Shown here piece by piece: positions 19,180-28,428 of a stretch of DNA of 33,238 nucleotides (the first letter of the stretch is position 1; the number at the start of each line of letters is the position of its first letter). The stretch comes from a phage. The notes beneath the pieces were generated by a model, which was not told the DNA's origin, did no database searches, and saw only the letters and a program-made list of their open reading frames with translations. Location of the stretch: NCBI GenBank assembly GCA_018175035.1, contig GCA_018175035.1_4099.2; one strand, written 5' to 3'. Made by a program: the position numbers and the translations under genes.

Positions 19180-19875
19180 ATGGTTGAACAATTCATGTTT
19201 GGTGGTTATGCTAATGGCGAAGTACGTAACATTTCTATTCCTTACGTAGTTGAGAAAGTTAATGGTTCAGAACGTACATATGATCTAGCATCTCGTATGA
19301 TGCAAGACCGTATCATTTTCCTTGATACTGATTTCAATGATCAAATGGCACATATCATCAAACAACAATTGGTATGGTTAGACTCACAAGGTGATTCCCC
19401 TATTACATTCTACATTAGTTCACCGGGTGGTTCAGTACACGCAGGTTTGGGTATTGCAGATGTTGCTAAGTCTTGTATTTCCCCAATTCGCACTGTAGTT
19501 ATGGGTTATGCAGCATCAATGGGTTGCTATACACAATCTGTTATTGGGACTAAAGGTTTCCGTTTAGGTGGTAAACGCTCATACTTCATGTGTCACCAAG
19601 TAAGTTCTGGTACACAAGGTCTAATTACTGACCAGAAGATTTCACTTAAACATTCTGATGCCCTAAACACTCTATTGACTAAAGAAATTGCAGAAGCAGT
19701 TGGTGTATCACACGAACAACTACTGAAAGATGCGGATCGTGACCTGTGGTTGAACGCTGAAGAAGCACTCGAATACGGTGAACATGGTTTCATTGATGGT
19801 ATCATCCTCGGACCACGCAACGAAGAAGGTAAGTATCTCGTCAAACGTCGCGGTGGCGTTGAAGAGTGGGTCTAA
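19180..19875 (+). CDS. clpP: ClpP-family serine protease proteolytic subunit
   Basis: Strong ClpP pattern: YSRMMQDRIIFL, SSPGGSV.AG, catalytic Ser in GYAASMG, His in MCHQ, Asp in DRDLW, C-terminal EALEYG. Confidence 0.85.
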   Translation: MVEQFMFGGYANGEVRNISIPYVVEKVNGSERTYDLASRMMQDRIIFLDTDFNDQMAHIIKQQLVWLDSQGDSPITFYISSPGGSVHAGLGIADVAKSCISPIRTVVMGYAASMGCYTQSVIGTKGFRLGGKRSYFMCHQVSSGTQGLITDQKISLKHSDALNTLLTKEIAEAVGVSHEQLLKDADRDLWLNAEEALEYGEHGFIDGIILGPRNEEGKYLVKRRGGVEEWV

Positions 19876-22550: not shown

Positions 22551-22928
22551 TTAACCAGGGATGTTACAATAATACAAATCCCAAGGGTGATATTTCATTT
22601 CTCCAGTACTCAATTTAATTTTATGAAACTGGAATGATTCGGCAAATGCACTATCATCAATCTTAATACAAAAAGTATTTTTTGCTAAAGTTGGTGCAAT
22701 CTCTAGTGCAGTTTTAGATGCATCTAATCTGATTTTATCTTTATCAAAACTTGTTATAGTTACAAAACGATAAACATTAAAATCAGTGTCGATAAGATCG
22801 TAAACACAACTAGAACGTTGATTAAAGATGTTCAAGTTATATTTCAATTCACCGTTTATATTAGCGGCGGTTACACAAAAGCCGCCGATATTGAATGGTA
22901 ATTTACCTTGTGCTGCTATAGCTTTCAT
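22551..22928 (-). CDS. Hypothetical protein (125 aa); the only convincing minus-strand gene
   Basis: ATG preceded on the minus strand by AGAGGA at 8 nt; stop abuts the bidirectional terminator; competing + strand ORFs here lack SD. Confidence 0.55.
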   Translation of the reverse strand: MKAIAAQGKLPFNIGGFCVTAANINGELKYNLNIFNQRSSCVYDLIDTDFNVYRFVTITSFDKDKIRLDASKTALEIAPTLAKNTFCIKIDDSAFAESFQFHKIKLSTGEMKYHPWDLYYCNIPG

Positions 22929-23175: not shown

Positions 23176-23204
23176 TTGACTTAAGTGTTTAAGTACTATA
23201 TTAT
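23176..23204 (+). promoter_or_regulatory. Candidate sigma70 promoter TTGACT-N17-TATTAT
   Basis: -35 TTGACT 23176-23181; -10 TATTAT 23199-23204; about 35 nt upstream of the 23238 gene. Confidence 0.45.
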
Positions 23205-23237
23205 TTATATCTTCCTAACCAAAATTAAGGATTTGTT

Positions 23238-23846
23238 ATGAAAAGACTATGGCTTGAGGTAGTACAAGCAGTAATGCTTCTGATGTTGATAAATTTTCCA
23301 GCCAGTGCTGGTATTGAAAGTAAAAATGTGATAAAGTACAATCCTGAAACACGTAATGTATATTTCATCTCAGATATTACGGATGGGTCACTAAAGCGTA
23401 TGATGGAGTTGTATGATAAAGAACACTATGATACCATTACCATCACATCGCCAGGTGGTGATTTTGATGCTGGGATTAAAATGGCAAACTTCGTTAGAGA
23501 CAATGGTATAAATTTAATTGTTTCTAGGTATTGCAACTCAGCATGTACTGTGGTATTCTTCAGTGTAGCTTTTGAAAAGCGATACATGATAAATCGCTCA
23601 GTACTGGGTCTTCATAACATTTCGATTAAAAGTAATGTTACTGATGGTGATAATTCATTTGTGTCTGTAAGACAGCTATCAACTTTTACCGAAGAAATGG
23701 CAACAAAGGTAGGTTTCCTTTTTTCACTATATGCAGCAAATGGAATCCCACCAGAAGTTCTATTTAGAGTTAGTCGTTCTCGTGGTGAAGATGTTGTAAT
23801 ATTAACAAAACCAGAACTGGTTTTTTACGGTTCAGTCAAACAATAA
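23238..23846 (+). CDS. Secreted (signal-peptide) ClpP/S49-like serine peptidase-fold protein
   Basis: N-terminal hydrophobic signal (LLMLINFPASAG); ClpP-like SPGGDFDAG, then CNSAC and GLHN in ClpP Ser/His positions; AAGGA SD. Confidence 0.55.
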   Translation: MKRLWLEVVQAVMLLMLINFPASAGIESKNVIKYNPETRNVYFISDITDGSLKRMMELYDKEHYDTITITSPGGDFDAGIKMANFVRDNGINLIVSRYCNSACTVVFFSVAFEKRYMINRSVLGLHNISIKSNVTDGDNSFVSVRQLSTFTEEMATKVGFLFSLYAANGIPPEVLFRVSRSRGEDVVILTKPELVFYGSVKQ

Positions 23847-23916: not shown

Positions 23917-24177
23917 ATGACAAACATCCAAAACTTGACATCTATTATTTTTTATGCTACTGTAGTAATGTATGCTACAGTTATTTTTCTAACAGTTTTC
24001 ATTTACAAAGATTATCGTAATGGCTTTATTGATCCAACTACAATGAAGTTCAATTCAAAATTCGAAGCAATAATTTATTATGTACTATCAACTTCATACT
24101 TGGTGTGCCTAATGTTGTTAGGAGCACTAATTTATATCTTATACACAACATTATTTGCAATTGGAGCTATTTTATGA
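23917..24177 (+). CDS. Small integral membrane protein (two TM helices)
   Basis: ATG ORF; hydrophobic segments. Confidence 0.5.
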   Translation: MTNIQNLTSIIFYATVVMYATVIFLTVFIYKDYRNGFIDPTTMKFNSKFEAIIYYVLSTSYLVCLMLLGALIYILYTTLFAIGAIL

Positions 24178-24767
24178 CCTGTATTATTGCACACACTGAC
24201 GGAGTAAGTTCTTTTATTGCTGGGGATAAGTTAGGAAGCAATGGATTTACAAAAACTGTTCAAACTGAGCCAAAGGTATTCGAGAAAGAATTTATCAAGT
24301 TACATGATGATGGACTAACTAGAACTAAAGAAGTAATGGCATTGGGTTATACTACATCATTTCGTATGGGTCAGTTGTTAAATTATAACCTTAATTTACC
24401 TGAACAAGATGCTAGTCAAACATTTTCACAATATTTGGTTCTTAAAGTTATTCCAATCATTCGTCAAATGTTTAAAGAAGAATGGGGTGCACGAGATGCA
24501 TCACAAGATGTAGGTGGTGGACAATTTATCATTCTCCACAATCATACAATCTATGAAGTTCAAGAAGACTTTTCAGTACTACAACCTAAAACAAGAATTA
24601 CCGCAGTAGGTAGTGGGACATATCATGCAATTGCAGCAATGCAAGCATATATTGAAGTTGAGAACGAATCTAAAAAACCACTACACGAACGTATCAAATC
24701 AATTTTTAAAATTGTTAGTGATAATGTAACAAGCGTAAGCGAAGAGTTTGATGTTTTAAAATATTAA
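24174..24767 (+). CDS. HslV/proteasome beta-subunit-like N-terminal-nucleophile hydrolase
   Basis: ATG 24174 (ATGA overlap, GGAG SD); N-terminus MTCIIAHTDG...IAGD parallels HslV MTTIVSV...IAGD with Thr at position 2; C-terminal AVGSGTYHAIAA parallels HslV AIGSGG.YA.AAA. Confidence 0.7.
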   Translation: MTCIIAHTDGVSSFIAGDKLGSNGFTKTVQTEPKVFEKEFIKLHDDGLTRTKEVMALGYTTSFRMGQLLNYNLNLPEQDASQTFSQYLVLKVIPIIRQMFKEEWGARDASQDVGGGQFIILHNHTIYEVQEDFSVLQPKTRITAVGSGTYHAIAAMQAYIEVENESKKPLHERIKSIFKIVSDNVTSVSEEFDVLKY

Positions 24768-24989: not shown

Positions 24990-24998
24990 GGATTGAAT

Positions 24999-25751
24999 AT
25001 GATATCAGAAAAATTTATAAGCAATGAAGGTAAAAAGCGATTACTGATTATATCAGGTGCAGGACTTTCTGTTGAAAGTGGTATGGAACCTTTTCGATTT
25101 GATGATGGTTTGTGGGATACATTTAAAATTAATGATGTATGTAACATTGCTAGTTTAACTACGAAATATCACGTTGTTCATTCCTTCTATAATACATTAC
25201 GTGTAAAATTGGGACAATGCGAACCCAATGCAATGCATTATTTTATAAAATCGTTAGAAGATCAATATGGTGATTGCTTCCTTCATATGACTTCTAACAT
25301 GGACGATCTTTATACTCGTATTGGTGGTCATGAGCTTAAACTTCATGGAAACTTGTGCGAAGTTATTGAAAATTATAGTATCAATTCCGATGATTATAAT
25401 GTTATTAACTGCGGATACGAACCATACATACCAAAACATGATGTTTTTGCTAAACCAAATGTAGTAATGATTGGAGAATATCATCGTTATGTTGATGGTA
25501 TTCGCTTACCAATTTACGAAGAACGAAATAATGTGTTGAAATCTCTTAATGAAAATGATACAGTTATTGTAATTGGTAGTAGCGATACAGTACTGGTATG
25601 GTCGAGATTAGCAGCAGCATTACCATGTTATAGTGTTAATGTTAACATTCGTAAAAATGATAATGATTTTTTGTTTAATGAAAAAGTTATCAAGCCAGCA
25701 ACCAAAGCAATACCGCATCTAGAGACTATAATTAAGGAACGTATGAAATGA
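24999..25751 (+). CDS. Sir2 (sirtuin) family protein, NAD-dependent deacylase / ADP-ribosyltransferase fold
   Basis: Sir2 motifs GAGLSVESGMEPFR (GAGxS...SGxPxFR), TSNMDDL (T/QNxDxL), LHGN, VVMIGE, VIVIGSS; no obvious 4-Cys zinc ribbon; ATG after AAGGA (track start 24993 is TTG). Confidence 0.75.
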   Translation: MISEKFISNEGKKRLLIISGAGLSVESGMEPFRFDDGLWDTFKINDVCNIASLTTKYHVVHSFYNTLRVKLGQCEPNAMHYFIKSLEDQYGDCFLHMTSNMDDLYTRIGGHELKLHGNLCEVIENYSINSDDYNVINCGYEPYIPKHDVFAKPNVVMIGEYHRYVDGIRLPIYEERNNVLKSLNENDTVIVIGSSDTVLVWSRLAAALPCYSVNVNIRKNDNDFLFNEKVIKPATKAIPHLETIIKERMK

Positions 25752-26299
25752 GTGTTAAAGAAGTTCCCTTTGGTGAATATGGCACACGTGCAAATTTTGT
25801 ATTTTGTTATTTCTTTGCAAGAAAATGCAACCCTTACAAAAACTATGAGTTGAATGATATACCAGAAGTAAATTTAGTATTACTGCAATTACGATGGGAT
25901 GGTCTTCTTGGTGGATGTGGTGGAACCGTAGAAAGTACTGATATCTCACTAGAAGATGCGTTGCGTCGTGAAGTTCAAGAAGAAATGGATTACAATATTT
26001 TTGTTTCCCATCTTCGACCACTCAAAACTTTTGAAATTTACCCAGGTGCAAACAGTCACAGTTTTAGCTATGAAGTAACCTATGACGAGTTGAAACACAT
26101 TAGAGATGGATACACTAATGCTAAACATGCAAGTGCAGAAGTTGCTGGTGTAAATTTATGTCATATTTCTCGTTATTCTAAGGGACAAAATCGAGAAGCG
26201 GGATATAATAATCTTATGACACAGAACTTCATCGGTACAGCAAAACAAGAATTGGAGTATCTGGTTCAAAAAGAAAACTTACTAATTAGTTATCTATAG
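25748..26299 (+). CDS. Putative Nudix-fold hydrolase (divergent Nudix box)
   Basis: ATGA overlap with Sir2 gene; GGCGGTVE...LRREVQEEMDY resembles Nudix box Gx5Ex7REUxEExGU with a 4-residue insertion and D in place of the last G. Confidence 0.45.
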   Translation: MSVKEVPFGEYGTRANFVFCYFFARKCNPYKNYELNDIPEVNLVLLQLRWDGLLGGCGGTVESTDISLEDALRREVQEEMDYNIFVSHLRPLKTFEIYPGANSHSFSYEVTYDELKHIRDGYTNAKHASAEVAGVNLCHISRYSKGQNREAGYNNLMTQNFIGTAKQELEYLVQKENLLISYL

Positions 26300-26988: not shown

Positions 26989-28428
26989 ATGAAAAAATAT
27001 ACAATTGACACAAACGTACTACTATCTGACCCTAATGCATCTATTGCTTTTGATGGTGCTGCAATCATTCTACCATTTACAGTACTGGAAGAATTGGATT
27101 CAATTAAGAGTCGTAATGTAGATGTTTCACGCGATGCTCGTGTTGCTATTCGTAACATTGAAGCAATTATTGCAGATGCATCACATGATGAGATTAGTAG
27201 TACTGGTGTTAATATTGCTGATGTTCATACCAATATGAATCCTGATAGCAAATTGTTTGTTATTACAAACGAAGAAGCTGAAGCACTAATTCGTACTAAA
27301 GGTTCAGAAGAGAAAGTTCAAACCCTTCTCAAAAGCACAGTACCTGATGATAAAATCATTCTGGTAGCTTTAGCAACAGAATCAGTACTGGTAACTCGTG
27401 ATATCAACATGCGTATCAAAGCACTAAGTTATGGTGTCGAGGTACAAGATTATCGCCATGATATTGTTATTGGTGATAGTGATTTGATTCACATTGGTCA
27501 ACACCATTTGGAAATTAATTTTTGGGAAGTATATAGCAACTTATCCAATACTAATATTCAATCCGAACAAGTTGGTCGTCGTTTGTATCATTACATTTCT
27601 AAAAGCTTGATTGAACATTTGCTTCCACAAAATCTATGCATCGGTGATTATCTATATGATGATGCAGACGTATTATTTGTGTACGAAGGTCAATCAGCAA
27701 TTGAGGAAGATGATGGAACACTAACACCAGAAGATATTTTGGTATTCCAAGATATTGGACAATCAGTAGCTTTACGTGCTAAAGTATGGGATATTAAAGC
27801 AAAGAATATCCAACAAGCACTCGCCATCAACAGTATTCTCGATCCTGATGTACATCTAACAGTACTGCTAGGTTCTGCTGGTACTGGTAAAACACTAATT
27901 ACGATTGCTACTGCATTAGAATTAGTACTGGAAAAACGTAAATACGACCGAATCATCTTCTCTAAAACTCAAGACTCACAGTTTGAAGATATTGGTTTCT
28001 TGCCAGGTTCAGAAGCAGAAAAAGTGATTCCATTCTGTGGAGCCGCAATTGACGCGTTAGAGTTTCTTCATAAAGATGATGCTAACCCACAAGGTAGTAT
28101 TGAAGAGATTATGAAACGTAATGTTATTCAATTTAAAGCACTAAACTTTGTACGTGGACGTTCATTCACCAACACTATTCTAGTAGTTGATGAATTCCAA
28201 AACATTACACCTGCACAAGCCAAAACAATCTTGACACGAGCAGGATTAAACTGTAAAGTAGTAATTATGGGTAACTTGAGTCAGATTGACAGTAAGTTTA
28301 TTAGTCCTGTTAACAGTGGTTTGACATATGTAACTGAGAAGTTTAAAGATTGGGCAGGTTGTCGTGTCATCGAACTAGAAGGTGTTGTTCGTTCACCACT
28401 TGCAGAATTTGCTGAAGAAAATATGTAA
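26989..28428 (+). CDS. phoH: PIN-domain PhoH-like ATPase (PhoH2/YlaK-type)
   Basis: N-terminal PIN-like region (YTIDTNVLLSDP...LEELD); Walker A GSAGTGKT, Walker B VVDEFQN; 479 aa. Confidence 0.85.
   Translation: MKKYTIDTNVLLSDPNASIAFDGAAIILPFTVLEELDSIKSRNVDVSRDARVAIRNIEAIIADASHDEISSTGVNIADVHTNMNPDSKLFVITNEEAEALIRTKGSEEKVQTLLKSTVPDDKIILVALATESVLVTRDINMRIKALSYGVEVQDYRHDIVIGDSDLIHIGQHHLEINFWEVYSNLSNTNIQSEQVGRRLYHYISKSLIEHLLPQNLCIGDYLYDDADVLFVYEGQSAIEEDDGTLTPEDILVFQDIGQSVALRAKVWDIKAKNIQQALAINSILDPDVHLTVLLGSAGTGKTLITIATALELVLEKRKYDRIIFSKTQDSQFEDIGFLPGSEAEKVIPFCGAAIDALEFLHKDDANPQGSIEEIMKRNVIQFKALNFVRGRSFTNTILVVDEFQNITPAQAKTILTRAGLNCKVVIMGNLSQIDSKFISPVNSGLTYVTEKFKDWAGCRVIELEGVVRSPLAEFAEENM

Follow-up and report, generated by a model that had tools for sequence, protein, structure and literature searches.

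Proteases of the ClpP fold are classically cytoplasmic machines fed by chaperones, and their known extracytoplasmic relatives, SppA and NfeD, are embedded in the membrane and use a different catalytic dyad. Few periplasm-directed enzymes encoded by phages, other than lysis proteins, are known to us. The gene described here is located in a phage contig of 33,238 nucleotides (GCA_018175035.1_4099.2), which is called the window below. Its product, a protein of 202 amino acids (aa), is probably a Sec-exported serine hydrolase of the ClpP fold and most likely a peptidase: judging from the sequence and the structure model, it would be made by the host polymerase, cut after Ala24, closed by a Cys99-Cys103 disulfide and active in ATP-independent periplasmic hydrolysis through Ser101 and His126. 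An earlier, sequence-only reading of the window had already proposed an exported peptidase at this place, and the open reading frame (ORF) was present exactly at positions 23238-23846, with an ATG start and an AAGGA ribosome-binding site. The gene and its label as a ClpP-like protease are already in the databases, and the point that the sequence-only reading added was export. New in the present analysis are the S14-like, not S49-like, fold, a large uncurated family of exported C-x-S-x-C proteins in diderm bacteria, the probable disulfide of the Cys pair and a promoter conserved in position.

Compared to ClpP (MEROPS S14, PF00574), the window protein showed several differences: the N-terminal axial loops with which ClpP docks its AAA+ partner are replaced by a signal-peptide-like helix and a linker; ClpP is cytoplasmic, while the window protein is predicted to reside in the periplasm, a compartment without ATP or unfoldase; the nucleophile is placed in C-x-S-x-C instead of A-A-S-M-G; and, in contrast to the catalytic Asp of ClpP, the third triad residue is not conserved in the exported ClpP-like family. 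SppA and SohB (MEROPS S49) use a Ser-Lys dyad, whereas a near-invariant His, with no Lys conserved, characterizes the family of the window protein; moreover, SppA is membrane-anchored and far larger, with tandem domains, compared to the single domain of 178 aa found here. The Peptidase_S49 Pfam model gave no match on the window protein at expectation values (E) up to 10, and TIGR00706 reached just 12-14 bits on the bacterial relatives against a cut-off of 155. The stomatin-specific, ClpP-class protease NfeD (1510-N) has a Ser-Lys dyad, multiple transmembrane segments and an OB domain at its C-terminus, and its gene has a stomatin gene as partner. None of these hallmarks was present in the single-domain window protein, which has no stomatin gene nearby, and NfeD1b_N scored 12.1 bits on it against a cut-off of 40. 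A conserved Lys was not found in the family alignments, leaving a Ser-Lys dyad of the S49/NfeD type unsupported. Of the "ClpP/S49-like" assignment made previously, only the ClpP half was supported, by the predicted fold with its Ser/His pair; the S49 half was not. The protein shares a phage-encoded ClpP fold of the Ser/His type with the ClpP-related prohead proteases (NF045542, phrog_94, phrog_1684), albeit NF045542 matched with only 20.4 bits against a cut-off of 120 and the two phrog profiles weakly (E 0.025-0.12); in contrast to those proteases, the window gene does not stand beside portal, scaffold or capsid genes and carries a signal peptide. Finally, there is a likeness to a family including the "hypothetical protein" WP_219172905.1 of Ferrimonas balearica, with which it has in common a signal peptide or lipobox, S-x-G-G, Y-C-x-S-[SA]-C, G-x-H and a C-terminal G.

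Relatedness to ClpP was weak by sequence and clear by the predicted fold. On the window protein, PF00574 (CLP_protease) scored 16.6 bits (E 0.0074), which is below its gathering threshold of 20.2 bits, and the NCBIfam ClpP models scored 17.6-23.6 bits against cut-offs of 228-251. Family profiles compared with the PDB sequences gave a best E of only about 0.005, with almost all matches being ClpP, NfeD or crotonases, while a single-sequence phmmer search of the PDB produced chance matches to proteins resembling green fluorescent protein via the segment NFPASAGIESKNVIKYNPET, which were rejected, a profile being needed. Alignment by hhalign with a small ClpP profile (four sequences) covered 171 columns with an E of 2.8e-5, compared to just 36 columns in an earlier alignment with the single ClpP sequence of the window. 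The identity with the latter in BLASTP was only 30% across 102 residues, and an origin as a recent duplicate of this neighboring gene was rejected for that reason. Two AlphaFold2 (AF2) models were obtained: one from 10 input sequences, with a predicted local distance difference test score (pLDDT) of 72, and one from 19 sequences of 25-67% identity, with a pLDDT of 90.2 and a predicted template modeling (TM) score of 0.78, all five models of the latter run reaching 88-90. The best 50 Foldseek matches in the PDB were all ClpP, with E from 3e-8 and TM of 0.6-0.7, and the nearest structural neighbors by a clear margin were peptidases, with ClpP first and SppA next. As modeled, the window protein has the ClpP alpha/beta fold, nearer to S14 than to S49.

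The ClpP-like core that the sequence-only reading had recognized by SPGGDFDAG (residues 71-79), with Ser and His in the expected places, was recovered in full: three independent comparisons (the profile against PDB sequences, hhalign and BLASTP) matched Ser101 to the catalytic Ser of ClpP and His126 to its catalytic His. In the AF2 model, Ser101 is placed between the strand 92-100 and the helix 102-109, forming a nucleophile elbow, and His126 directly follows the strand 122-125. Ser71, Gly73, Gly74 and Ser101 were invariant in 125 of 125 diverse relatives and a His was present at position 126 in all but one of them; since the overall identity is only 20-30%, this conservation argues that catalysis has been retained. 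The candidate third residue, Asp185, is located in the modeled loop between the helix 172-179 and the strand 187-190, which is the topological place of Asp171 in ClpP, while hhalign put Asp171 one column off. Among 19 sequences of the phage type, position 185 was occupied by D or E in ten, by N in six and by S, T or K in the remaining three.

The Cys pair around the nucleophile was nearly as well preserved as the catalytic residues. C-x-S-x-C was found in 161 of 162 relatives (158 at the standard spacing and 3 more after an insertion), the sole true exception being the two-domain protein P0028, where both Cys are replaced by Ala in both domains; in cytoplasmic ClpP, the two places are taken by Ala and Gly. 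Cys99 and Cys103 are the only Cys of the mature window protein, and the same is true for the pair in the mature chains of the phage type except for an extra Cys139 in P0016, with all others located inside the signal peptide. In G-x-S-x-G elbows, the residues at -2 and +2 of the nucleophile pack against each other. In exported proteins, an invariant Cys pair whose members are lost together usually points to a structural disulfide, so such a bond between Cys99 and Cys103 probably staples the nucleophile elbow and would form only after export.

The N-terminus has the layout of a Sec signal peptide: a basic n-region (MKR), an uncharged h-region of 13 residues (VVQAVMLLMLINF) with a mean Kyte-Doolittle hydropathy of 2.64 across its best 10 residues, and P-A-S-A/G, which places Pro at -4 and A-S-A at -3 to -1 of the predicted cleavage site. 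A crude rule set combining charge, h-region hydropathy and the -3/-1 rule was passed by only three of the 103 window ORFs of at least 60 aa, namely the gene described here, one for a small membrane protein and one antisense ORF; in the control, six of seven signal peptides of E. coli passed. Export through Tat was rejected, as the twin-arginine motif is missing. F20-P21-A22-x-A24 was invariant in relatives down to 49% identity, and the orthologues of EJP2 and Erwinia phage Hallingskeid (about 33% identity) retain MKK, the hydrophobic stretch and P-S-S-A/E. The helix 2-19 stands apart from the core in both AF2 models, and the better of the two has its lowest confidence at residues 23-27, corresponding to the predicted cleavage site in a disordered linker. 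The predicted mature chain begins 6 residues ahead of the first strand, and the mature part is without a further hydrophobic segment. The strongest argument for export is comparative, namely the prevalence of signal-like segments across the family: in a sample of 163 members, 142 had a strongly hydrophobic N-terminal segment of this kind and about 33 a lipobox-like Cys. The cleavable-looking signal sequence of the sequence-only reading is thus also predicted here, from heuristics, family-wide conservation and the structure model, and the catalytic domain would face the periplasm whether this signal is cleaved or serves as an anchor.

The family to which the phage protein belongs turned out to be large. 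A word-indexed homologue search found only 13 close relatives, while the bacterial members were reached by an exhaustive profile search, which returned 1,867 proteins at E <= 1e-3. Approximately the top 15 matches were full-length proteins of 190-225 aa; the remaining relatives were mostly bacterial proteins of 220-300 aa, mainly from Proteobacteria, with profile E-values from 1e-10 to 1e-17 for the best-scoring ones. The bacterial members share residues ~10-130, including the signal peptide, S-x-G-G, Y-C-x-S-S-C-A-N-Y and G-x-H-G-G. They differ from the phage type by a longer and different C-terminal half and by the motif SSCANY...GxHGG, whereas proteins of the phage type (~200 aa) have H-N replacing H-G-G and a conserved C-terminal half of their own (Y165, G169, P171). 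The window protein carries all four marks of the family: C-x-S-x-C, S-x-G-G, G-x-H and, at the N-terminus, a signal peptide or lipobox. The exact peptide YCxSSCANY occurred in at least 160 species-representative genomes of diderm bacteria, mainly Gamma- and Betaproteobacteria (Vibrio, Aliivibrio, Alteromonas, Shewanella, Ferrimonas, Proteus, Acinetobacter, Massilia, Janthinobacterium, Vogesella), and also in a few Campylobacteraceae, Myxococcales and others. The source labels of the bacterial members were "hypothetical protein", with one "ClpP class serine protease". None of the Pfam-A and NCBIfam models reached its cut-off on the ten family members tested, and full-text literature searches gave no description of exported or periplasmic ClpP-like proteins. 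COG3904 ("predicted periplasmic protein") was considered as a name for the bacterial family and set aside, the papers in which it appears being uninformative or contradictory. The Rak2-like phages presumably acquired their gene from this bacterial C-x-S-x-C family. Four relatives (P0028, P0052, P0101 and P0118) are multi-domain proteins of 437-1006 aa with two to five exported ClpP-like domains in tandem, an arrangement that recalls SppA.

The window comes from an Asteriusvirus, one of the Rak2-like jumbo phages: a stretch of 2.4 kb surrounding the gene had 92-97% identity with Escherichia phages 121Q, PBECO4, UB, G17, phAPEC6 and others of 320-385 kb, and the protein was 96.5% identical to gp473 of 121Q. 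The gene is already known, with labels that are inconsistent between records: gp473 is a "protease (ClpP-like)" in GenBank and RefSeq, and some GenBank records give the gene as a capsid (head) maturation protease. The profile phrog_26024 ("protease") matched from end to end (residues 1-202 against positions 1-202 of 202, E 2.6e-119). Orthologues were present in 48 phage records of INPHARED, nearly all of them jumbo phages of 310-386 kb, with Escherichia, Salmonella, Klebsiella, Erwinia and Xanthomonas as hosts, while a search of IMG/VR for related loci recovered solely 121Q itself. The searched literature on Rak2-like phages does not describe the gene, and that on Rak2-like and other jumbo phages discusses the canonical ClpP alone. 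Three orthologues (P0004-P0006) are labeled as proteins of Escherichia coli and belong to contigs of 68-343 kb, which are probably complete or partial jumbo-phage genomes within E. coli assemblies, as a result of a carrier state, pseudolysogeny or contamination.

The upstream neighbor is transcribed from the opposite strand, so the gene starts a transcription unit and needs a promoter of its own. A sigma70-type promoter is present in front of it (Table 1), and TTGACA/T-17-TAxxxT was found at the same distance from the ATG in 121Q, A4, EJP2 and Erwinia phage Hallingskeid, with the -35 box at -64 to -60, while the flanks of the promoter have diverged among these phages and are not alignable. Its conservation in position supports transcription by the host sigma70 RNA polymerase, and the expression would probably be early in infection. 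A convincing terminator was not found 3' of the gene, so co-transcription with the downstream genes may occur.

The following scheme is probable as a whole. Transcription by the host sigma70 RNA polymerase would start at the conserved promoter of the gene and probably take place early, as read from the promoter only. The 202-aa precursor would then pass through Sec and be cut by signal peptidase I after Ala24, as suggested by the sequence, the signal peptides of the family and the model, and the mature domain of 178 aa is predicted to fold as a ClpP subunit. Periplasmic oxidation would join Cys99 and Cys103 and thereby staple the nucleophile elbow, consistent with the conservation of the pair and its paired loss. 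Finally, peptide bonds of envelope or periplasmic substrates would be hydrolyzed by Ser101 and His126, together with the oxyanion hole formed by S-x-G-G and probably, in this phage, Asp185, both the activity and the substrate being putative. The most likely role would be to alter the envelope of the host in the course of the long jumbo-phage infection cycle, such as by removal of a host envelope protein or exclusion of other phages. A rather improbable extension is that the phage protein makes up, with its bacterial relatives (more than 1,800), a so far undescribed class of ClpP-like Ser/His peptidases that work in the periplasm independently of ATP, in which the Cys(-2)-Cys(+2) disulfide would make the activity dependent on export and DsbA oxidation, acting as a compartment switch, and that in the Rak2-like phages the enzyme would be made by the host polymerase to cleave a specific envelope protein (a receptor, a porin or an envelope-located defense component) for superinfection exclusion or counter-defense. 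A small soluble Ser/His version with a signal peptide, kept in a jumbo-phage clade and in more than 100 proteobacterial species, would represent an uncharted enzyme family, and an exported, probably early, protease would be a candidate for takeover of the host envelope, superinfection exclusion or defeat of envelope-located defenses. As a small and easily expressed protein it is a readily testable lead, with a modest practical gain at present.

Several observations weigh against this scheme. Glu7 and Gln10, located where the hydrophobic segment begins, remain conserved at identities as low as ~33%, which is unusual for a cleaved and disposable signal peptide, so the helix could be retained, and the orthologue of the Klebsiella phages (RaK2/K64-1) has neither a basic n-region nor an A-x-A site. 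A conserved acidic third residue was not found across the family alignment, and the chemistry may therefore differ from that of ClpP; the assignment as a peptidase is drawn from the predicted fold and two residues, with the ClpP similarity remaining under the Pfam and NCBIfam cut-offs. The early timing is suggested by the promoter motif alone, and no transcriptome was found for it. Near the bacterial members, two look-ups of gene context and clustering of flanking ORFs at 80 loci revealed no gene partner recurring across genera, the recurrences seen being either synteny specific for Massilia or overlapping antisense ORFs.

The N-terminal observations among these would fit an uncleaved signal anchor, with the ClpP-fold domain tethered at the periplasmic face of the inner membrane in a type II topology, like SppA or proteins of the NfeD type, and acting on membrane-proximal substrates. 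The helix 2-19 is predicted with a pLDDT of ~90 and the best 19-residue hydropathy window, at 1.85, is in the transmembrane range; however, the uncharged stretch ahead of Pro21, with only ~13 residues, would make a short membrane span. Furthermore, the Asteriusvirus clade shows little or no variation in Pro at -4 and A-S-A at -3 to -1, EJP2 and Hallingskeid have S-S-A at the latter place, and many of the bacterial relatives carry a lipobox or a signal peptide that is clearly of the cleavable type. An anchor is thus regarded as unlikely, though it deserves serious consideration. Substrates other than peptides are a still more doubtful proposition: an exported Ser/His esterase or acyl-hydrolase might act on acyl chains of lipoproteins, on lipopolysaccharide or on peptidoglycan substituents, or the protein might be a non-catalytic binding protein, but S-x-G-G, the elbow Ser and the His, conserved in all or nearly all relatives, correspond to the ClpP-type peptidase set, and peptidases are the closest structural neighbors.

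A cytoplasmic paralogue of ClpP, which would either join the ClpP of the phage or of the host in mixed rings of the ClpP1P2 kind or serve as a capsid (head) maturation protease, would agree with the weak matches to the models of ClpP and of ClpP-related head maturation proteases and with the canonical ClpP gene 3.4 kb upstream. These matches are, however, far under the curated cut-offs (16.6 vs. 20.2, 20.4 vs. 120 and 23.6 vs. 228 bits), a signal sequence takes the place of the axial-loop region of ClpP, and the signal peptides or lipoboxes and the invariant Cys pair extend across the family, which makes a cytoplasmic function very improbable. A head maturation role is unlikely also for its location, since the gene is remote from capsid and portal genes and has dCMP deaminase, HslV-like peptidase, Sir2 and Nudix genes as neighbors. 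Furthermore, the proteomic studies of phAPEC6 and RaK2 (PMC7247149, PMC3622015) identified the prohead protease of the group elsewhere, as a "prohead core scaffold and protease" of the T4 gp21 type beside the major capsid gene, and a search of their text limited to the word "protease" did not find the window protein named among the virion proteins.

Two features of the N-terminal region were seen on the side. The orthologue of Klebsiella phage K64-1 (Alcyoneusvirus; positions 2387-2983) begins with MFIVLKEFLYNTLIAFSLIFPSHD, without a net positive n-region, and may be membrane-anchored instead of cleaved, a possible difference in topology between the phage genera. The Glu7/Gln10 pattern, encoded by codons 7-10 (23256-23267), reads [KL]-E-x-x-[QY] in EJP2, Hallingskeid and K64-1, and a weak 5-bp hairpin can form at 23252-23269 in the same stretch.

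Table 1. Positions of the exported ClpP-like gene, its predicted elements and the neighboring genes in the window (E, expectation value; pI, isoelectric point)
Feature	Position	Strand	Remarks
Whole ORF, 202-aa precursor	23238..23846	+	ATG start; orthologue of 121Q gp473, phrog_26024
Sigma70-type promoter, TTGACT-17 nt-TATTAT	23176..23204	+	10/12 consensus matches; -10 box ends 33 nt before the start codon
Ribosome-binding site AAGGA	23227..23231	+	6 nt 5' of ATG, seen in sequence
Predicted Sec signal peptide, residues 1-24 (MKRLWLEVVQAVMLLMLINFPASA)	23238..23309	+	Predicted cleavage after Ala24, then GIES
Predicted mature ClpP-fold catalytic domain, residues 25-202	23310..23843	+	178 aa, ~20.0 kDa, pI ~6.9
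S71-P-G73-G74, ClpP-type "SPGG" oxyanion-hole motif	23448..23459	+	Aligns with ClpP SPGG
C99-N-S101-A-C103, putative nucleophile Ser with flanking Cys pair	23532..23546	+	Strand-to-helix elbow
His126 (in G-L-H-N), predicted general base	23613..23615	+	Aligns with ClpP His122
Asp185, candidate third triad residue	23790..23792	+	Counterpart of ClpP Asp171
Canonical ClpP	19180..19875	+	PF00574 E 3.3e-41; TIGR00493 E 1.6e-44, under equivalog cut-off
Virion structural immunoglobulin (Ig)-domain gene, upstream neighbor	22551..22928	-	
86-aa ORF, 121Q gp474	23917-24177	+	Two predicted transmembrane helices
HslV-like peptidase, 121Q gp475	24174-24767	+	phrog_1040 E 5.6e-25; NCBIfam HslV only ~20 bits
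Sir2 gene	24993-25751		PF02146 E 3.7e-20
Nudt16-like Nudix hydrolase	25748-26299		
PhoH-like gene	26989-28428		Synteny with 121Q gp480

The gene follows, in this order, those for DNA ligase, metallophosphoesterase, ClpP, deoxycytidine monophosphate (dCMP) deaminase and the Ig-like structural protein on the opposite strand. Next downstream is a gene for nicotinamide mononucleotide-adenylyltransferase/Nudix, in place of which Asteriusvirus has those for a small membrane protein and the HslV-like peptidase. The order is kept in relatives at ~30% identity, and the two top-match contigs examined (P0017 and P0020) were Rak2-like phages with the gene order of the window. The exported ClpP-like gene is thus both conserved and syntenic in the Rak2-like group. 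The canonical ClpP of the window has an intact Ser/His/Asp triad and no signal sequence, which bears out the previous remark that the exported protein is a second, distinct ClpP-fold gene product near a cytoplasmic ClpP. In RefSeq, the canonical ClpP of 121Q is labeled "head maturation protease"; since proteomics places the prohead protease beside the capsid gene, this label is probably a transfer artefact.

The 86-aa membrane ORF and the HslV-like peptidase gene overlap by ATGA, which suggests translational coupling of the tiny membrane protein to the peptidase. The latter starts with MTCIIAH, and its Thr2 could become the N-terminal nucleophile once the Met is removed. A functional pairing of the exported ClpP-like protein with the 86-aa membrane protein was considered and rejected, because the membrane protein is missing beside the orthologues in EJP2, Hallingskeid, K64-1 and the metagenomic contigs. 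In total, the ~9 kb between 19180 and 28428 contain three genes of peptidase folds (ClpP, exported ClpP-like and HslV-like) together with Sir2, Nudix and PhoH-like genes, and this region looks like a host-takeover or metabolism module, not a structural one.

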